DNA from: Escherichia phage vB_EcoM_WFL6982
Length of the DNA: 64,000 nucleotides
Strand: one strand, 5' to 3'
Sequence record: MK373774.1
Under the pieces are notes generated by a model. That model made no database searches, was not told the origin of the DNA, and saw nothing but the letters and a program-made list of their open reading frames with translations. Positions 3,961 to 61,149 of this stretch are shown in pieces. The translations under genes and the position numbers were made by a program. Position 1 is the stretch's first letter, and each line of letters opens with the position of its first letter.

Positions 3961-4010
3961 TGCCTTGCGGCAACCTTGTCGGGGTTCCACCTGCTAAGGC
4001 AAGTGTTTGT

Positions 4011-4102
4011 ACGAAACGCCGGGATTTGAACCCGGTTATTAAGTAGTTGACGCTACTCAATATTTTTAAAAGGCCATATCTCGACCATATCCGAACGTTC
4101 CG
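4011..4102 (-). ncRNA. tRNA-like structured RNA candidate (not a canonical tRNA)
   Basis: Minus strand has a canonical T-arm CCGGG-TTCAAAT-CCCGG and a 7-bp acceptor-like pairing 92 nt apart, but D and anticodon arms do not fold canonically. Confidence 0.25.
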
Positions 4103-4270
4103 TCAAAAACGCTACTCGGCTTACGGCAAAGATATTTCCTCGAATCGATAATTCTGTGCGCCGTTTCTGCTGTGATGTAAGGGGATATTAACAAATCGTA
4201 AAGATTTATTAAGACCAGTCCTTACTCAGGGAACATCAGTCCGACGACTTACCGGTAGCGACCCGGCTTC

Positions 4271-4615
4271 TTATTTTGACATATCATCAATTTGCTCTCG
4301 ACGCCGACGCCATAGATTAATCGCTTCATTAACACATTCGGCGTTTGGTATATGACGGCAATAATATAATGATTCGCGTTTCTGGAACCGATGTTGCAAC
4401 GGGATTTCGTTTAAAAGGTCTTTACGGTCAAAGTATTCAAAACTAGTTAACCCAGAACGATTTTTAAGAAACTTCCAATGTCCGAATTCATTTTGAAAAT
4501 AGACATAATCAGCATGCTGATACAGCGAATTAATTAACCTATCGGAAATAACTGTTTCACGTTCGTTAAAATAAAATGTTAAGTCATGAACTACCAGATA
4601 AATATTGCCTTTCAT
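4271..4615 (-). CDS. hypothetical protein
   Basis: ORF taken from internal Met MKGNIYLVVHD so that it does not overlap tRNA-Arg. Confidence 0.5.
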   Translation of the reverse strand: MKGNIYLVVHDLTFYFNERETVISDRLINSLYQHADYVYFQNEFGHWKFLKNRSGLTSFEYFDRKDLLNEIPLQHRFQKRESLYYCRHIPNAECVNEAINLWRRRREQIDDMSK

Positions 4616-4633
4616 ATTTTCCTCACTTAAAGT

Positions 4634-4709
4634 TGGTGCCTCTAGAAAGATTTGAACTCTCACCATTAACCTTAGAATGATTATATGCTATCCATTACAC
4701 TATAGAGGC
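4634..4709 (-). tRNA. tRNA-Arg (anticodon TCT)
   Basis: Hand-folded cloverleaf: perfect 7-bp acceptor GCCTCTA/TAGAGGC, T-arm GAGAG-TTCAAAT-CTTTC, anticodon loop ATTCTAA, encoded CCA; 76 nt. Confidence 0.8.
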
Positions 4710-5366
4710 AATTAAATTATTTACAATATCTTCTTTATAAACTTCAGCATAATGAAGTTCATATATTTCCCATCCTAATGATTTTATAATATCATGGCGT
4801 TCTTTATAATAAGGGGCCAAAATCTTTTTCTTAGGATTGGAGTAATGTTGGTTTCCATTAACTTCAATAATAATCTTTTTATCTATTAAAGCAATATCCG
4901 TGCAATACGCTCGGTTTTTAACCGGTTGGTATTCTTCAATAAATGAAATTCCATTTTCTATTAATTTAGATTTCAAAAATTCACAAGGCACAGATTTAAA
5001 TTTTGTATTTTTCTTCCAAGGATGTTTATCGGGGTTTTCATTCAACCATTTTTTCCGAGCATTAGATATTTTTATTCTAGCTTCCTCAGAGTGTTCTCTA
5101 CCTAATGAAGCGGCTGACAATTTTTGTCTAGTCTCTTCCGAAATTACTACAGGAACACCAGTCTTTTTAGATACAACATACTGGTTTAAATTACCTGAAG
5201 CTATACGTGCTTTATTCATTGCTGCAATGGCTGATTTAGAACTTTCTTTATACAATTCCAATTTAGGGTTGGATTTACACCATCTAGTGTGGTTAGCCAT
5301 CCATCCTTTAGGTTTATTAGAAATATCAAATTCCATATTACAATGTTTACAAATGCTCATTACCAA
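4695..5366 (-). CDS. putative homing endonuclease (zinc ribbon, NUMOD3 repeats, Vsr/DUF559-like C-terminal region)
   Basis: N-terminal CKHC..HTRWC; tandem ISEETRQKLSAA and HSEEARIKISNA NUMOD3-like motifs; C-terminal IIEVNGNQH...SLGWEIYEL; sits where segB sits in T4 as I recall. Confidence 0.6.
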   Translation of the reverse strand: MVMSICKHCNMEFDISNKPKGWMANHTRWCKSNPKLELYKESSKSAIAAMNKARIASGNLNQYVVSKKTGVPVVISEETRQKLSAASLGREHSEEARIKISNARKKWLNENPDKHPWKKNTKFKSVPCEFLKSKLIENGISFIEEYQPVKNRAYCTDIALIDKKIIIEVNGNQHYSNPKKKILAPYYKERHDIIKSLGWEIYELHYAEVYKEDIVNNLIASIV

Positions 5367-5666: not shown

Positions 5667-6182
5667 TTAAAGCAAATCAATCATTTTAACAGTTGGCAAA
5701 ACGATTTCTTCTTCAATATAAGCAAATTCAACACATTCAACTACACGCAAGAAATCATAATCATAATATTCAGAAGCATGACCAAGAATATCAATGAGAC
5801 CTTCTGATACTAAATATCCATTCTCATGGAACAGGTCAAATACACGCGATTCGTCTTCTTCAGATTTATTACCAAGGTCGACTTCAATATCAAAGACCTT
5901 TTTAATGAATTCTGGATAAAGCTGGTCTGAGAACAATCCTTCAACCAAGTATTCATAGATTAAAAGCGAACAATCACTGAATAGTGTATTACCACAGTAA
6001 TGTTCAGCTTTAGTGCTAGAATGACGACTCTTAAATTTCTTCAAGAGATATTTAAACTGTTGGAGCTCATGCTCTTCCACTTCAAACAATGTTTTGGTTT
6101 TATAGTTGTCACCATCATTTTCATAGGTAGTGACATCAATTACGTAACCCTTAGGAATTGTACTGCCTAAACAAATATTCAT
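5667..6182 (-). CDS. hypothetical protein (acidic)
   Basis: 171-aa ORF in the early operon between the tRNA cluster and ipI. Confidence 0.5.
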   Translation of the reverse strand: MNICLGSTIPKGYVIDVTTYENDGDNYKTKTLFEVEEHELQQFKYLLKKFKSRHSSTKAEHYCGNTLFSDCSLLIYEYLVEGLFSDQLYPEFIKKVFDIEVDLGNKSEEDESRVFDLFHENGYLVSEGLIDILGHASEYYDYDFLRVVECVEFAYIEEEIVLPTVKMIDLL

Positions 6183-6186
6183 TTAC

Positions 6187-6477
6187 TCACCGTACCATAT
6201 TAATGTAATTATATTCAATGCAACGTAATTTCAAAGGATTCTTGAAAATATCATATTCAAGAGGACCTTTTTCTGTTTCAATAAAGAAATCAAAGTTCAC
6301 ACTATTAAATTTGCGGTCTTCCCAAAGTAATTTAACCTGTGAAGATGAACGGTCGACGTAAACCTTTTCAACTTCAAAGTGGGTCAAAATACCATAGTAA
6401 TCGACTAGTGCTTTAGCTGCAGCTCGGTCGCTTTCATATCCATTCTCAACGGATTTTACCTTAGCATAAAGAATCAT
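6187..6477 (-). CDS. hypothetical protein
   Basis: 96-aa ORF, tightly packed with neighbours. Confidence 0.45.
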   Translation of the reverse strand: MILYAKVKSVENGYESDRAAAKALVDYYGILTHFEVEKVYVDRSSSQVKLLWEDRKFNSVNFDFFIETEKGPLEYDIFKNPLKLRCIEYNYINMVR

Positions 6478-54624: not shown

Positions 54625-54670
54625 TTGTTGATAGGATAATAGTATCACACATCCATGTGTTTGTAAACTA
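54625..54670 (-). promoter_or_regulatory. T4-type early promoter
   Basis: Minus strand GTTTAC-N18-TACTAT-TATCCTATCAA; overlaps the alt 3' end. Confidence 0.5.
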
Positions 54671-56755
54671 TCCTTGGACAAATTTAAACGGAACTGATTC
54701 TAAATCCATTAAAGATGCTAACAATTTCAAACCTTTAGGTGCACTAGTTTTTTCTACAAATGAAGAGAACGATACCGGCTCATCCGATTCGATTTCACCC
54801 GTCATAGCAACCACCTCGCCTGTTTCCATGAGAACATCACCATCGTAAATGACAGCTTCATCCAACTGGTCTGAGGACATGACTTCAGCTTGAATAAATT
54901 TAAGGTTAGATTCTAAACCTGCACCAGTGTCAGATGACGCATCTGTAATTTTATTTATCTGCAAGAGAATGCCTCTAGGCAAAATAATTTCTTGCTCATT
55001 AGGGTGATTACTCAACTGTCCTGGATAAATCACGTTAACTTTATGGGCGCCGTCAATAGCCCATCCAACGTTAACACGGATTTGTTCTGGCGCATGCATA
55101 GCGGTACGCACCAGACTAGGAGAAATAGTAACACCTTCATCATTATTGTCAATGTTAAGCTCTTTGCGAACTTCTTCAGGAGCAAGTCCAAGGGCAACGT
55201 TCTCTTTAAACCCACCGAAAATAATAGGAGCTAGTGAAGTGGAAACATAGTTTCTGAAGTAGAATACCTTATTTTTAACCATTGCTTCGTAAATAGGCAT
55301 TCTGATAGACTGAGCTCTATATAACGTTAGTCCTTCAGGTAAACGGTCTCCATTTAAAAACGCCGAATCAAGACCATCAATAGCGCGTTTAACTTCATCT
55401 TCATCTGCAACATCGTAAAAATCTGGTTTATAACGACCTAACAACATATTATTGATATCGGTATACGCAGAAGAGGCATATTCACGAATAGCTCGTTTTT
55501 CAGCAACAGAGTATTGTTTAGGGTCCCGATTCATTGTTATATTAAAGGTGCCTCTAGCCGATTCTCGTGCATAAGTATACATCACACTAGACAAGAACGC
55601 TGATTTACGTTGTTTCCAAGTTTTTTCAGATACTTCAGCTAAAACATCGTCGGCCAGTTGGAAATTATCACGTCTAAAATCTTCAAACCATTCGTCTTTA
55701 ATAGAGTCCGCAATTTCGTTTGCAGCTTCAACAAAAGCAGCTAATGCTTTAACAGATGTTGTTTTTTCAGTTTTAATTTTCTTAGCAAACTTTTCTAAAG
55801 TTGGCTTAATAACACTACCATAAGAAACTTCATCAGCAAATCTAAAGGATTCATCAATACGATTATAAATCTTATTTTCGATATCAGCAACTAAAGTGCC
55901 TTTTGCTGTGGATGATGCTTGGGCTAGTACGATTTCATATGCTTCAGGAAGTAATTCGGCTGTAGCCGGGCCACTAACTTCTTTAGCAGAATTTTCGTAT
56001 TTCTGGAATAACTCACCTTCTTGGCGGTCAGCTTCTAAAGATTGGCTTGCGGCAATAGCACGACGAGAAATTTTAGTACGAGCAATAACAGGCTTATCTT
56101 TACGTTTTTCTTCTACAGCAGCAATAGAACCGGCGATAGCCGTTTCTTTGGTGACCTTTTCGCCAGTCTTTTTACTCACATAAACTTCGCCAACATCAGA
56201 ATCTACTTTCGCGTACAACTCTGTGTTAATGTTAGGGATGCCTTTAATATCTTCAATGTTGGCATTTTTACGAACCATCATCACATAGGTGTGTTTACCT
56301 GTGAATTGATACATTGCCGACAATACTTTAAAACGACCACCGGTTTTAGTAGAAACTAAACGAGCAAGAAGAGTTTGAAGCTGCTGTCCACGTCCTTTCA
56401 ATTTCTTGGTAGGGAATCGGAATAGAACCGCATCCATACGAAGAGCTTTAACCTGTTCATATACTGTATTGAAAATGGTGTTGATTGCATCAATAGGAGC
56501 AGGACCAAGGCCATTTTTCAATTCAGCGAGATTACCCTTTTCAGACAGACTCATAATAACAACATGAGCGTATTTGTCGCCAAGTTTAACTTGTTTTACA
56601 GCGTCGCCTTCGGAAAGGTAAGAGAATAAACGAACTACGATGTTTGTATCAACATCACCAATTTTCCAGACTTGTGGAACTTTAGCTTTAGGGTTCAAAT
56701 TGACGACAGGAAGACTGCCTTCAGATTCAAACACTTCATTTAATTGTTCAGACAT
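54668..56755 (-). CDS. alt: ADP-ribosyltransferase Alt
   Basis: 695 aa; C-terminal R-S-E type motifs (LYRAQ, STSL, QEIILP); position between 54 and 30. Confidence 0.85.
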   Translation of the reverse strand: MSEQLNEVFESEGSLPVVNLNPKAKVPQVWKIGDVDTNIVVRLFSYLSEGDAVKQVKLGDKYAHVVIMSLSEKGNLAELKNGLGPAPIDAINTIFNTVYEQVKALRMDAVLFRFPTKKLKGRGQQLQTLLARLVSTKTGGRFKVLSAMYQFTGKHTYVMMVRKNANIEDIKGIPNINTELYAKVDSDVGEVYVSKKTGEKVTKETAIAGSIAAVEEKRKDKPVIARTKISRRAIAASQSLEADRQEGELFQKYENSAKEVSGPATAELLPEAYEIVLAQASSTAKGTLVADIENKIYNRIDESFRFADEVSYGSVIKPTLEKFAKKIKTEKTTSVKALAAFVEAANEIADSIKDEWFEDFRRDNFQLADDVLAEVSEKTWKQRKSAFLSSVMYTYARESARGTFNITMNRDPKQYSVAEKRAIREYASSAYTDINNMLLGRYKPDFYDVADEDEVKRAIDGLDSAFLNGDRLPEGLTLYRAQSIRMPIYEAMVKNKVFYFRNYVSTSLAPIIFGGFKENVALGLAPEEVRKELNIDNNDEGVTISPSLVRTAMHAPEQIRVNVGWAIDGAHKVNVIYPGQLSNHPNEQEIILPRGILLQINKITDASSDTGAGLESNLKFIQAEVMSSDQLDEAVIYDGDVLMETGEVVAMTGEIESDEPVSFSSFVEKTSAPKGLKLLASLMDLESVPFKFVQG

Positions 56756-56810: not shown

Positions 56811-56999
56811 TTAATCCACAATCGGAAGCAAAGTACGATAAACTTCAAAATTAGAGCCTTTTTCGTACTTATCGAAATTGTCCATAAAAATATGATAGGA
56901 ATCGTTATTAGGAAAATCTAATATAATCTGAGAGCAAGAGGTGGAAACATCTCCACCATCCTTCTTAGCTACAATAACTGTTTCTAAATAAGCTTTCAT
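56811..56999 (-). CDS. hypothetical small protein
   Basis: Start MKAYLET in TAATG overlap with the ligase stop. Confidence 0.5.
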   Translation of the reverse strand: MKAYLETVIVAKKDGGDVSTSCSQIILDFPNNDSYHIFMDNFDKYEKGSNFEVYRTLLPIVD

Positions 57000-58492
57000 T
57001 ATAAACCTGTCTGGGACCACGGTCCAAATACGTCTTCAAACGAATCCGCTTCTGTTTTATCAAAACGGAACCCTTTAATAATTGGGAGGAAAATACCTAC
57101 AGTGCCTTCACGTCCTTTAGAATGAACCCAACCATTGCATTCACAATCAGCAATACGTCCAATCAATTTACCTTCACGAGCTTCGGTCATTAATCGTTCA
57201 CGGTCCAAATCATGTCGCTCATCTAAAGGAATAAGAACCTTTACACCATCAACTGTTTTATGAGTTGTATCTTTAAACCCTGAACCACAATCGGTTGTAA
57301 TACGACGACAACGTGATACGAGTTCGACACCACCTAATTTGTTAGGGTCTTTAGAGTGTTCATAGTATCCTACAACTTCTAAAGCGATATCAATAACTTC
57401 TTTAAATTTAATTAGGTTCTTAGAACGTTTGTTTTCCCAATATGAATCACGGTTTTTAAGGATAATACCTTCAAGACCTTGGTCAACATATTTTTTATAA
57501 ACCACTTTAGCTTCGTCAAGATTACGAACTAACTGATTTTCAATTGGCTCAATTCGTTTAAAGCCTTCAGCCATATTTTCAAGAGCAGCAAAACGAACAT
57601 CGTATTTCTGACCTTTAATTTTGCCATCAGAATAGACTTCATCTAAAGGAACATAGTCCCAGGCTTGAAGAACCATACCTTCAGCTTCTTTAGGAGAAAT
57701 AGTCCCTTGAAGAGATTTATTTGCTAAACCGTTTGAAGTGCTACGGTCCGCAACTTGTACTTCTTCGGATTCTTCATTATCACCAAATAAGAACGACAGG
57801 TCATTTCCTGAGCTCACAGCCTTTTTAATATCAAATGAATGGTAAACTAATTCACCGTCGATTAAAACCCCATTAGGGTGTCTTTCACGAGCTTCTTTAG
57901 TCATTTCCATTAGTTCATCCGCTAATAGAGTAAGACCATGATATTCGTTGCCGGCACGAGAAAAGAATTGAACACCATCATCGCGAACTTCAGCGAAACA
58001 ACGAGCACCATCTGCTTTTAATTGGGCAAATGCGGGCCATTTAATATTTTTAGTAATCAATTTCTCGTCATATGCAGATGCTAACATCTGTGGTTGCAAT
58101 TGAATAAGTCCAGGCCACACCTTATTCGCGATAGACACTGAAGCACCTACTTCAAGATCGCGCATCATTACACGACGAAGGACTTCTACATCATCAGGTT
58201 TACCATCAGCGATATAACCCATGAGCTCTTTAATTGCAGCATTACCAGTGAGTTTACGAGTGGCTAATGTGAACTCAATAAAATCCAACATGTCATCTAA
58301 TTCAAGAAGACCATACGCTTGAGACCTTTCACCTGGTCCTGGCCATTTCTTAATATAATACTGGATACCACGTGCATATGTTAAACGATACACACGTTCA
58401 AGTAATTTGTTGTCCTTATTTTTCTTAAGGATTTCCTGTTTTGTTTTAGTAGAACCAATCGCAGCTATTTGGTTTAAAATATCTAAAATCAT
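56999..58492 (-). CDS. 30: ATP-dependent DNA ligase
   Basis: MILDILNQIAAIGSTK.. and adenylation motif KADGAR match T4 DNA ligase. Confidence 0.95.
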   Translation of the reverse strand: MILDILNQIAAIGSTKTKQEILKKNKDNKLLERVYRLTYARGIQYYIKKWPGPGERSQAYGLLELDDMLDFIEFTLATRKLTGNAAIKELMGYIADGKPDDVEVLRRVMMRDLEVGASVSIANKVWPGLIQLQPQMLASAYDEKLITKNIKWPAFAQLKADGARCFAEVRDDGVQFFSRAGNEYHGLTLLADELMEMTKEARERHPNGVLIDGELVYHSFDIKKAVSSGNDLSFLFGDNEESEEVQVADRSTSNGLANKSLQGTISPKEAEGMVLQAWDYVPLDEVYSDGKIKGQKYDVRFAALENMAEGFKRIEPIENQLVRNLDEAKVVYKKYVDQGLEGIILKNRDSYWENKRSKNLIKFKEVIDIALEVVGYYEHSKDPNKLGGVELVSRCRRITTDCGSGFKDTTHKTVDGVKVLIPLDERHDLDRERLMTEAREGKLIGRIADCECNGWVHSKGREGTVGIFLPIIKGFRFDKTEADSFEDVFGPWSQTGL

Positions 58493-58758
58493 TTGATGTC
58501 CTCGATTTTGGTTACGGTTCTATTATAAGCCACTTCATCTAGAAGCGATTTCAGCGTTTTCTGATAAGTTGTAATCCATTTACCGAGTCCTTCAACATAG
58601 TATTCTGAAATGTAGATGAACCCTTGTTCAACACACTCTTTAAATATTTCTGCGTCTTTTACTGAACGAAACAATGGCCAGTCTCGAAAGAACATGTTAA
58701 CGTGACCGTAGTCACGTGTGGTATTTTTGCCATCTGTAATATCATGAACTACAAACAT
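58489..58758 (-). CDS. hypothetical protein (30.1 position)
   Basis: 89-aa ORF, ATGA overlap with ligase start. Confidence 0.55.
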   Translation of the reverse strand: MFVVHDITDGKNTTRDYGHVNMFFRDWPLFRSVKDAEIFKECVEQGFIYISEYYVEGLGKWITTYQKTLKSLLDEVAYNRTVTKIEDIK

Positions 58759-58767
58759 AATTAACCC

Positions 58768-59592
58768 TTAACAATTTATAGACCAAGTCCATTTAGACGA
58801 ATCTAAAGGAAAGTTTTGAATCGTCCACCACGGCTGCATATCAGTTGGTCCTGGGGTTCGCCAGGTATATGGAGTACGTGTTGTCGAGGGGCCACCAATT
58901 TGATTAGGCCATGCACCTGGACTTGTTGCACCAGATTCTTTAAGCAAATCCGCCAATCGTTTTAAAAGGTCTTCACGATCTGAATCTGAATTATTCTTAG
59001 GCAGAACCAAACGAGATTCAATATCATCCCACGTGTGTACACGTTGTGCAGTACGAGGAATGGCATCACGTTCACCACGAGCCAACCAATAAATCGGTAC
59101 ATTAAGAATTTCTGCCGCATGGTCACAATGATGAGCTAAATCGTCAACGTAACAAATTACGTTATATTTTGTTTTAGCTAGTTCGAATAATTGTTCCTTT
59201 GAAGAATCATGACCACACATCATTACTTCAGAGAAAGCGCCTGGGAACAAAGCATTCAAATTAAATTGTCTATTCAATCGAGCATCAATTGAATCACCTA
59301 GCGCCGTCACGGCTACAAAATTATAGTCTTCTTTTAGTTTATTGATAACTCGAAGAGCATCAGAATAAGGCGCTAAGTAACGAATAAAATCAGAGCTATT
59401 ATATTTTTCTATTAATTGTTTACCAAGGTTATCGTCGGTGTTGAACAGTTTACCAGGAGAAATAAATTTTTCGTCCTGAATCATTTTTAAAATATGTTCT
59501 AATGGAAGGTTATATTTTTGGGCAAAATAAGGAAGTCCAGATTGCCAGCTTAAACATACACCATCAATATCAGTCAAAATAGTAGGCTTCAT
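58768..59592 (-). CDS. HAD-superfamily phosphatase-like protein with Trp/Pro-rich tail
   Basis: N-terminal ILTDIDGV (DxDG[TV] motif); C-terminal PGAWPNQIGGPSTTRTPYTWRTPGPTDMQPWWTIQNF. Confidence 0.6.
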   Translation of the reverse strand: MKPTILTDIDGVCLSWQSGLPYFAQKYNLPLEHILKMIQDEKFISPGKLFNTDDNLGKQLIEKYNSSDFIRYLAPYSDALRVINKLKEDYNFVAVTALGDSIDARLNRQFNLNALFPGAFSEVMMCGHDSSKEQLFELAKTKYNVICYVDDLAHHCDHAAEILNVPIYWLARGERDAIPRTAQRVHTWDDIESRLVLPKNNSDSDREDLLKRLADLLKESGATSPGAWPNQIGGPSTTRTPYTWRTPGPTDMQPWWTIQNFPLDSSKWTWSINC

Positions 59593-60056
59593 AAAGAGTC
59601 TCTTAATAGGTTTAACACGTCAATAAATTCATCTTCAGTTAGTATTGTATCATCTTTTGTTAGGTGGCTGGCCATGCTGTGCTTCAAAATTTTTCCTTTA
59701 GAGGCTTGTAAGGCATCACGAAACCCCTTGTTTTGGATCGCGGCTTCAAAATATGCATTTGTGTATAATTCTTTCCATGCTTCGGAGTATCTTGAAAATG
59801 GAACTCCTAACCAGAAGAGAGTCCCACGGTCCTGAGCTCTTGCGTAAGACCTTCCAGCTTGCTGTGCAGCCAATCCAGACAACCAAAATATACGTCTTTG
59901 TTGTTCAACATTTTTCACCTTACATCCTTGGAGAAATCCTTCAAGACCTCCGAATTGAATACCATCCATAACAAAAGGCCATTGAGCAAAGTTACTTAAT
60001 GCACATGACGGCCATTTGAAATTACTTCTTATTTCTAATTCAGACATCTTTAACAC
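59589..60056 (-). CDS. NADAR/YbiA-like (DUF1768) protein
   Basis: ALSNFAQWPFVMDGIQFGGLEGFLQGCK resembles the YbiA core FSNFAAWP..DG...SEHYFQAQK. Confidence 0.55.
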   Translation of the reverse strand: MLKMSELEIRSNFKWPSCALSNFAQWPFVMDGIQFGGLEGFLQGCKVKNVEQQRRIFWLSGLAAQQAGRSYARAQDRGTLFWLGVPFSRYSEAWKELYTNAYFEAAIQNKGFRDALQASKGKILKHSMASHLTKDDTILTEDEFIDVLNLLRDSL

Positions 60057-60258
60057 TTATAATTTCAACATCAGCCCAATGTCCGTATCCAGGTATACGG
60101 TCTTCGATAGATAAATTTCTGTCATTTTTAGGCATTTTAATTGACGTAACGTATGGTTCTAAACGGTTTTCCGCGTAATATGGAAAAACGTCGGTTACAC
60201 GATAAGTAACTTCAATCATTTCCGTACCAAACAATTTCTGGATTAATTTATTCAACAT
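60040..60258 (-). CDS. hypothetical small protein
   Basis: 72-aa ORF in operon. Confidence 0.4.
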   Translation of the reverse strand: MLNKLIQKLFGTEMIEVTYRVTDVFPYYAENRLEPYVTSIKMPKNDRNLSIEDRIPGYGHWADVEIISVKDV

Positions 60259-60445
60259 GTTTCAACCCTTTAATAGGAGATAACTCTTTACCCATACGTA
60301 TGTCAGAAGTCCCATCAACCCATTGAACAGCATACGCTTCATTGATAATTCCAGCGGCAGTTTTAAATTCGTTGAGAACTTTAAAAATCATCCCAGGGAT
60401 TCCAACACCTTTTAATTGGACTGTTTGTGCTATTAAAAATTTCAT
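60248..60445 (-). CDS. hypothetical small protein
   Basis: 65-aa ORF in operon. Confidence 0.4.
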   Translation of the reverse strand: MKFLIAQTVQLKGVGIPGMIFKVLNEFKTAAGIINEAYAVQWVDGTSDIRMGKELSPIKGLKHVE

Positions 60446-60499: not shown

Positions 60500-61114
60500 C
60501 TACTTAATGAAATTAATTTCTACCGGATGAACAACAGGTTGAGCAGTGATATATTGAGTAATTGCTTTCATGACTAGAGCTTCAGAACCAGGATTTTTCT
60601 CAACGAATTCACGTGCTAGGTTATGAGCTTCGAGTTCACTCAATAAACCGGAACGCTGGCATCCACGGTCTTGAGTACCCTGTTCAGATAAAAGGACTAC
60701 TACATATTTTTCATCGTCGTAGGGCTTAGCCAGTTGAGCAAATGTTCCTTTACTTCCAAAAGGAGAGTTATGTCGCCACATCACGCCGTGAGGAGTTTCA
60801 ACCTTCGTATATTCGTGCGGTCCATTTTTCTTAGTTTCTTGATGTGGAACTTCATAGACTTTAGGGTTAGGACATTCAATAAAATGCTCATCTAAATCGG
60901 TCGAGAATATTAAAGTAAAACAATTACTGAATTTACCAACACCGGCCTGATAAATTTTACCTTCAGAAGTTCTAATTTCACAAACTGAGCCGGCATCAGT
61001 AACTTCTAAAACTTCAAAAGGCTCAATAAGGTCATATGAGAACATGTTTTTAAGGCGTGGAGTAATATCCCCATTTTTAAAATTCATTTTATAAAAAGTA
61101 TTAACTTTAAACAT
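60500..61114 (-). CDS. hypothetical protein
   Basis: Start MFKVNTFYK with GAGGAAA SD; longer frame would read through the upstream terminator hairpin. Confidence 0.55.
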   Translation of the reverse strand: MFKVNTFYKMNFKNGDITPRLKNMFSYDLIEPFEVLEVTDAGSVCEIRTSEGKIYQAGVGKFSNCFTLIFSTDLDEHFIECPNPKVYEVPHQETKKNGPHEYTKVETPHGVMWRHNSPFGSKGTFAQLAKPYDDEKYVVVLLSEQGTQDRGCQRSGLLSELEAHNLAREFVEKNPGSEALVMKAITQYITAQPVVHPVEINFIK

Positions 61115-61126
61115 AATTTCCTCAGT

Positions 61127-61142
61127 GGGAGCCGAAGCTCCC
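61127..61142 (-). terminator. hairpin GGGAGCUUCGGCUCCC
   Basis: UUCG-loop hairpin between the 61150 and 60500 ORFs. Confidence 0.45.
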
Positions 61143-61149
61143 AATTAAT

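Follow-up and report, generated by a model that had tools for sequence, protein, structure and literature searches.

A probable Mosigvirus orthologue of T4 adfN and a neighbouring gene for a predicted HAD-type phosphatase in Escherichia phage vB_EcoM_WFL6982

What is encoded by two small overlapping genes lying close to the DNA ligase gene of a T-even phage, and do their products act together? This question is raised by a stretch of 64,000 nucleotides from Escherichia phage vB_EcoM_WFL6982 (record MK373774.1; the whole stretch is referred to as the window), for which a preliminary description made from the letters alone had pointed out an open reading frame (ORF) of 155 amino acids resembling NADAR/YbiA proteins beside an ORF of 274 amino acids bearing a HAD-type motif. 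Both ORFs were found on the minus strand, the former at 59589-60056 with a GTG start and the latter at 58768-59592. Our data indicated that the first is very probably orthologous, in this Mosigvirus, to T4 gene 30.3 (adfN), encoding an anti-DarT1 hydrolase of ADP-ribosylated guanine (G-ADPr), and that the second, gene 30.2, encodes a separate HAD phosphatase. The anti-defence role of gene 30.3 is already known, having been identified and characterised between 2023 and 2026; a sequence-only reading recovered a genuine anti-defence gene, and its value is mostly confirmatory.

The extent of the first gene had to be corrected. The 155-residue frame is present, but its GTG start at 60056, which would add the residues MLK, is probably wrong. 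Translation most likely begins at the ATG at 60047, which yields a protein of 152 amino acids, because T4 gp30.3 has the same length and the coding sequence in record MK373775 is annotated likewise; residue numbers therefore match the T4 numbering of the literature and are used below. The ORF matched family PF08010 (Phage_30_3) with E = 5e-69 (231 bits, the cutoff being 36). Homologues were found in 1510 phage records, and over 3000 protein clusters contained them; by these figures the ORF lies far beyond chance. Its product was identical to T4 gp30.3 at 145 of 152 residues (95%), and no other gene of the block comes near adfN in its conservation with respect to T4, the values for alt, the ligase gene, 30.1, 30.2 and 30.4 ranging from 42 to 67%.

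Kinship of gp30.3 with the NADAR proteins is visible only by profiles and structure. Profiles built from seven and from 73 sequences both ranked E. coli YbiA (2B3W) first among PDB sequences, with E = 0.0098 and 0.0023, respectively, and the family profile aligned gp30.3 residues 14-67 with YbiA residues 29-83 (E = 0.002). The stretch ALSNFAQWPFVMDGIQFGGLEGFLQGCK, at residues 19-46 of the 155-residue ORF, had been described as close to the YbiA/NADAR core motif, and it did align to the YbiA core in this profile, with 11 of 27 positions identical. Additionally, 16 of the 73 family members matched the NADAR family PF08719 (best E = 3.4e-6) beside PF08010. Single-sequence searches of NCBIfam and PADLOC with gp30.3 gave no match. 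Regarding structure, a single-sequence AlphaFold run on the 155-residue ORF yielded an unusable model, with a predicted local distance difference test (pLDDT) of 38; AlphaFold2 supplied with an alignment of 72 sequences yielded a model with a pLDDT of 95.2 and a predicted template modelling score of 0.90. This model displays the NADAR fold, an alpha-helical core with two small flanking beta-sheets. Its structural matches were the NADAR of Phytophthora (8BAU, score 12.2), E. coli YbiA (2B3W, 11.5) and the DarG1-type NADAR of G. lovleyi (8BAT, 9.6), followed at 3.7 by a designed protein that is not a NADAR (8GLT), and the same three structures were the top three returned by Foldseek. Profile matches and, decisively, the predicted fold thus bear out the NADAR/YbiA-like assignment, for which the lack of a NADAR fold had been named beforehand as a ground for refutation.

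The residues expected in the active site were also in place (Table 1). By spacing and motif, E36 would correspond to E43 of PnNADAR, and K43 would likewise correspond to its K50; in PnNADAR this pair, spaced seven residues apart, touches ADP-ribose at its distal ribose and phosphate (Schuller et al. 2023, PMC11543638). H123 would occupy the position of PnNADAR E125, as judged by alignment and spacing, not by superposition. The YbiA-type Glu125 is replaced by aspartate in DarG1-type NADARs and by histidine in phage NADARs (Schuller et al. 2023, PMC11543638), and at the level of the alignment H123 fits this signature of the phage clade. T4 AdfN is impaired by the substitutions E36A and K43A and by C-terminal truncation (PMC11825919). 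The family match, orthology, synteny, H123 and a full C-terminal helix assign gp30.3 to the AdfN(T4)-type clade (PF08010).

Published work on the T4 protein provides the function. Gene 30.3 of T4 was renamed adfN, for anti-DarT factor NADAR, by Johannesman et al. (Nat Commun 2025, PMC11825919). In that study T4 and T2 deleted for adfN no longer plaqued on DarTG1 hosts, ectopic expression of the gene rescued RB69 on DarTG1, and purified T4 AdfN took ADP-ribose off DarT1-modified DNA in an in vitro dot blot; the protein did not bind DarT1 and had no effect against DarTG2. The T4 NADAR was subsequently reported to hydrolyse G-ADPr, and not C-ADPr, in vitro (2026 study, PMC12945103). In the genome-wide T4 transposon screen HIDEN-SEQ (2025), gene 30.3 showed a log2 fold change of -7.25 on DarTG1 (adjusted p 0; Data S6), and it was dispensable on K-12 without DarTG1, 27 of 28 sites carrying insertions. 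By these two 2025 studies, T4 AdfN is both necessary and sufficient for resistance to DarTG1. The earlier suggestion that a phage NADAR may serve as counter-defence against DarT was therefore correct, but it had already been demonstrated for T4 AdfN, a protein 95% identical to the present one.

Orthology, fold, active-site residues and an intact frame having been established for the window gene, its chemistry and phenotype can be expected to follow those of the T4 protein. AdfN would be expressed within a tightly packed block of co-directional genes and would hydrolyse the N-glycosidic linkage that joins ADP-ribose to guanine in DarT1-modified DNA. Release of the ADP-ribose would restore a replicable template and hence permit growth on DarTG1-carrying hosts. 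The enzyme would act on the lesion without binding the toxin, and no help would be expected against DarTG2, which modifies thymine; the phage is accordingly predicted to resist DarTG1 and to gain nothing against DarTG2.

The 3' end of the gene is of particular relevance in this respect. RB69, the nearest DNA relative in the block (see Table 1 for its ligase, 30.1 and 30.2 identities), stands alone among the T-even phages in its sensitivity to DarTG1, and its truncated 30.3 allele is considered non-functional or reduced (PMC11825919). A three-way DNA alignment of the window, RB69 and T4 revealed that the window has RB69-type sequence but lacks an extra T present in RB69 at gene position 411 (window position 59637). 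In RB69 this base shifts the frame and ends the protein 15 residues early, whereas the window protein is full-length; the DarTG1 sensitivity of RB69 is attributable to this truncation. Bas46 and Bas47, described as the two closest relatives of RB69 in the collection studied, are DarTG1-resistant (PMC11825919). The Mosigvirus analysed here carries adfN in intact form, whereas in its relative RB69 a frameshift of a single base in this gene is what makes that phage uniquely DarTG1-sensitive.

Comparison of the adfN codons with those of T4 showed 38 synonymous and 7 non-synonymous differences, which indicates purifying selection on adfN and not recent transfer. The contrast in conservation inside one block suggests, as an observation in its own right, that purifying selection has acted on the anti-DarT1 enzyme with unusual strength. 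An internal out-of-frame ORF of T4, 30.3' (75 amino acids), has a counterpart inside adfN at 59684-59911 (minus strand), with an in-frame stop at codon 35; ORF 30.3' is thus not conserved in this phage and is probably not a real gene.

Several observations weigh against the proposed identity of the two genes. The window gp30.3 is filed in a separate family, PF08010, and did not match PF08719 even at E <= 10; since only some of its relatives do, the Pfam link to NADAR is transitive. A single-sequence phmmer search with gp30.3 found no NADAR chain among PDB sequences. For T4 AdfN, the E36A and K43A substitutions caused only partial loss in vivo (PMC11825919), and full activity requires a further T-even factor, so that the mechanism is incomplete. 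The experiments concern alleles of other phages, chiefly T4 and T2, from which a function for the present allele would be carried over, and seven substitutions separate it from T4 AdfN (window to T4: K11R, W55G, E89P, I120V, M125I, H128G and D139A), none of them at a known catalytic position. As for gene 30.2, its product stayed below every Pfam gathering threshold, the HAD_2 match having E = 0.014 and 16 bits against a cutoff of 23.8.

Comparison with characterised NADARs placed the window protein closest to T4 AdfN. They share 95% identity over 152 residues, gene order, the 8-nucleotide overlap with 30.4, the three residues E36, K43 and H123, and a C-terminal helix that is complete. However, T4 is a Tequatrovirus and the window phage a Mosigvirus of the RB69 group, with flanking genes only 42-67% identical. 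DarG1, the NADAR antitoxin of DarTG1, represented by the G. lovleyi NADAR (8BAT), is encoded next to DarT1, whereas the phage gene is an orphan: its neighbours are 30.4 and 30.2, neither of them a DarT gene, and PADLOC gave no matches. Although an orphan, the phage NADAR would work like DarG1. It lacks the DarG1 N-terminal extension (152 amino acids against 219 in 8BAT, the first core strand being at residues 3-5), as does T4 AdfN according to the literature, and it has histidine where DarG1 has aspartate. T4 AdfN cannot substitute for DarG1 in uninfected cells (PMC11825919). E. coli YbiA (2B3W) and the Phytophthora NADAR (8BAU) are 19-21% identical to the phage protein, in which the YbiA-type glutamate is replaced by histidine; YbiA also differs in biological role, acting on riboflavin intermediates. 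A PF08010 NADAR was also observed at 6001-6447 of a 290 kb contig of a Candidatus Limnocylindrales bacterium. This protein is 42% identical to that of the window and lies amid housekeeping genes (methionine synthase, nucleotidyltransferase, chloride channel), none of its neighbours being a DarT or HAD gene; it is a bacterial representative of the AdfN-type clade that stands by itself.

The gene might nonetheless serve another purpose in infection. One such purpose would be the phage's own ADP-ribosylation economy, the NADAR mainly reversing the marks set by Alt, ModA and ModB or degrading soluble immune signals derived from ADP-ribose, with repair of DarT1 lesions as a secondary effect. The position of alt, an ADP-ribosyltransferase gene in the same co-directional region 3 kb away (Table 1), is in line with this, and Iyer et al. 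(2022) noted that T4-like NADARs are expressed early together with ADP-ribosyltransferases and argued for soluble ADP-ribose derivatives as substrates. We consider this quite unlikely as the main role, although a secondary one is conceivable: T4 AdfN strips ADP-ribose from DNA in vitro, DarTG1 sensitivity is the sole phenotype reported, the gene is dispensable on K-12 when DarTG1 is absent, and Alt targets protein arginine, a different linkage on which no action of AdfN has been reported. A YbiA-like housekeeping role, as an N-glycosidase acting on reactive intermediates of the riboflavin pathway, is extremely unlikely. YbiA was the best match of the PDB sequence profiles and the second-best structural match, but the glutamate that defines YbiA is His123 here, a signature of the phage clade, the T4 orthologue acts on G-ADPr in DNA and has a DarTG1 phenotype, and it is not evident why a lytic phage should need such a housekeeping activity. 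Anti-DarT1 hydrolysis of G-ADPr thus remains the preferred function of the window gene.

A joint function of the two ORFs might be read into their presentation as one feature. In such a two-enzyme module the HAD protein would be the T-even factor that potentiates AdfN, or would process the released ADP-ribose. Genes 30.3 and 30.2 overlap by an ATGA stop/start, occur in nearly equal numbers of phage records (1510 and 1441, respectively) from the same host genera, and lie side by side, or nearly so, in T4, Acj61 and RB43; in Vibrio phage ValKK3 a NADAR gene is followed by that of a bona fide NT5C protein, and the further T-even factor for AdfN is stated in the literature. The T4 transposon data nevertheless speak against it, as insertions in 30.2 were not depleted on DarTG1 (log2 fold change -0.12, p = 0.61, 71 sites; HIDEN-SEQ Data S6), against the strong depletion in 30.3. 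Synteny is also broken on both sides: Aeromonas phage Aswh_1 has 30.2 beside the ligase gene and no 30.3 nearby, and homologues of 30.3 outside Straboviridae (in one phage each of Rhizobium and Ralstonia, in a bacterial chromosome and on a 318-kb contig) have no HAD neighbour. AdfN, moreover, works alone in vitro. A module of this kind is therefore very improbable, and gp30.2 was rejected as a partner of AdfN on the T4 transposon data and the broken synteny. Those data indicate that 30.2 is not required for the anti-DarTG1 function, the two genes being neighbours with no proven functional link. It is the ligase gene that accompanies 30.2 more constantly (four Straboviridae genera).

The ValKK3 arrangement deserves mention in its own right. 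At 4007-4961 of the sequence from this Schizotequatrovirus, a NADAR gene of the gp30.3 type overlaps a downstream NT5C gene (PF06941, E = 1.5e-12); the genomic surroundings differ, with no ligase gene nearby, and this is a second, apparently independent adjacency of a NADAR with a HAD nucleotidase. In the related Schizotequatrovirus V09, the better homologue of gp30.2 sits elsewhere in the genome.

With gp30.2 removed as a candidate for the T-even factor, a weak pointer leads to gp30.4. Exactly two genes were significant in the comparison of control and DarTG1 in HIDEN-SEQ Data S6, 30.3 and 30.4, the latter with a log2 fold change of -1.79 (adjusted p 0.014); in the main text of that study, as far as it was searched, only 30.3/adfN is named as a DarTG1 hit. 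The gp30.4 protein, 51-53% identical to its T4 counterpart in two comparisons, was found to be confined to enterobacterial T-even phages (721 records) and is present in RB69. Its range matches the settings in which ectopic AdfN(T4) works fully (RB69) as opposed to those in which it does not (uninfected E. coli, T5 and Bas25), and would therefore fit a helper role. Polarity of 30.4 insertions on adfN is, however, the simplest explanation of the 30.4 signal, and it is unlikely that gp30.4, in place of gp30.2, is the potentiating factor.

What, then, is gp30.2? The HAD character ascribed to the 274-residue ORF was supported at the level of motifs and profiles, by DIDGV at residues 8-12, by all four HAD motifs and by the family profile. 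The relatives comprised 51 closer homologues and a broader set of 70 used for a wide profile. D8, D10 and K132 were invariant in both alignments, T96 and D151 were conserved in at least 90% of sequences, and D150 was invariant among the 51 closer homologues; the motif codons were confirmed, and all four motifs aligned in canonical order to those of 3BWV, a solved putative 5'(3')-deoxyribonucleotidase. The broad profile matched 3BWV over its full length (E = 1.2e-6), followed by other HAD nucleotide phosphatases (SSM1/SDT1, XMP phosphatase and mdN/cdN). Among PDB sequences, the 51-sequence profile found the 5'(3')-deoxyribonucleotidase 2JAO with E = 0.29, below a spurious amidase, and gp30.2 alone matched 2JAO with E = 0.11; a search of NCBIfam with gp30.2 gave nothing meaningful. 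PF06941 (NT5C) was matched by 28 of the 70 relatives (best E = 4e-10), PF13419 by 13 and PF00702 by 12. An exhaustive profile search recovered 1087 representatives of gp30.2 clusters, mostly stand-alone proteins of 190-215 amino acids.

As in the NT5C enzymes (PF06941; 3BWV; human mdN/cdN), DxDGV, Thr, Lys and DD follow each other in this order, motifs I and II being some 85 residues apart, where a cap domain would be expected. On these grounds gp30.2 is read as an active phosphatase of the HAD superfamily, dependent on Mg2+ and of 5'(3')-(deoxy)nucleotidase type, for which a nucleoside monophosphate would be the best guess of substrate. It differs from the NT5C enzymes, and from many of its homologues, by an additional tail of about 80 residues rich in Trp and Pro. 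The unusual composition of this tail had been pointed out before and is real, its last 56 residues containing 6 Trp, 8 Pro and 9 Thr; it diverges from the tail of T4 gp30.2, and 41 of 98 homologues, being shorter than 240 amino acids, lack the tail wholly or almost so. The motif W(R/V)xPGPxDxxPW(Y/W) was found in 11 of the 98, occurring here as WRTPGPTDMQPWW, and GIEYLxRQPT was found in 18 but not in the window protein. By its composition the tail could be a disordered interaction tail, which is a guess; the two motifs resemble short linear interaction motifs.

The proximity of 30.2 to the ligase gene suggests another activity. A PNKP-like HAD protein acting as a DNA-end 3'-phosphatase, and not as a nucleotidase, could heal nicks for the neighbouring ligase. 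No more than one small ORF separates 30.2 from gene 30 in Tequatrovirus, Mosigvirus, Lasallevirus (Acj61), Pseudotevenvirus (RB43, with overlapping genes) and Ishigurovirus (Aswh_1), and one of the 70 relatives weakly matched PF25109 (HAD_PNKP, E = 0.003). On the other hand, the best profile matches are nucleotide phosphatases, with NT5C as the commonest Pfam match, the synteny may be mere inheritance, and T4 already has PseT for 3'-phosphate ends; a role at DNA ends is unlikely. T4 gene 30.2 is non-essential on K-12 (72 of 72 sites with insertions; HIDEN-SEQ), and a search for gp30.2 under that name found no mention in the literature covered. Spread over some 1400 phage genomes, gp30.2 would be an ordinary member of a known superfamily.

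Regarding the locus as a whole (Table 1), region 58400-60300 was 100% identical to Escherichia phage vB_EcoM_WFK (MK373775; Straboviridae, Tevenvirinae, Mosigvirus). Genes 30.5, 30.4, 30.3, 30.2, 30.1 and the ligase gene form a tightly packed, co-directional block on the minus strand, upstream of alt, with overlaps of 4-11 nucleotides or one 9-nucleotide gap at the junctions. The 30.4 stop reaches 8 nucleotides into 30.3, as in T4, and the order alt-30-30.1-30.2-30.3-30.4 is that of T4. Amino-acid identities indicate that the block is RB69-like. A scan for promoters and terminators counted 26 promoter-like sites against 19.7 +/- 5.1 expected.

Table 1. Coordinates of genes and features of the adfN locus in the window, with amino-acid identities to the RB69 and T4 counterparts
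Feature	Coordinates	Strand	Basis or remark	RB69 (%)	T4 (%)
alt, ADP-ribosyltransferase	54668-56755	minus	PF03496, E = 3e-28	92.5	42
Gene 30, ATP-dependent DNA ligase	56999..58492	minus	PF01068	99.2	64
Gene 30.1 (DUF3045), between 30.2 and ligase gene	58489..58758	minus	PF11243, E = 1.4e-26	97.8	56
Gene 30.2, 274 amino acids, HAD-type	58768..59592	minus	DIDGV at residues 8-12	96.4	67
gp30.2 C-terminal tail, residues 196-274, Trp/Pro/Thr-rich	58768..59007	minus	Composition; variable; holds WRTPGPTDMQPWW		
gp30.2 core, residues 1-195, putative HAD phosphatase domain, NT5C-type closest	59008..59592	minus	Motifs I D8/D10, II T96, III K132, IV D150/D151		
adfN (gene 30.3), 152 amino acids, probable phage-type NADAR DNA ADP-ribosylglycohydrolase	59589..60047	minus	PF08010		95
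adfN intact 3' end, C-terminal helix residues 138-151	59592..59637	minus	DNA alignment of window, RB69 and T4; helix in model at high confidence		
H123 codon, histidine in place of YbiA-type glutamate	59679..59681	minus	Sole invariant His in the 72- and 73-sequence alignments		
K43 codon, putative ADP-ribose-contacting lysine	59919..59921	minus	Codon checked; in at least 90% of 72 relatives; aligns to YbiA Lys		
E36 codon, putative catalytic glutamate	59940..59942	minus	Codon checked; in at least 90% of the 72-sequence alignment; aligns to YbiA Glu in SEHYFQAQK		
Gene 30.4, 72 amino acids, without known family	60040..60258	minus	phrog_2042	88.9	51

Beyond the block, an ORF of 204-214 amino acids was observed at 60500-61144 on the minus strand, matching phrog_17531 (E = 3e-146) and no Pfam family. 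In T4 and RB69 this place is taken by the small gene 30.6, of which the ORF appears to be a lineage-specific replacement. A terminator-like hairpin lies at 61120-61143, and the phrog_17531 ORF is located just downstream of it.

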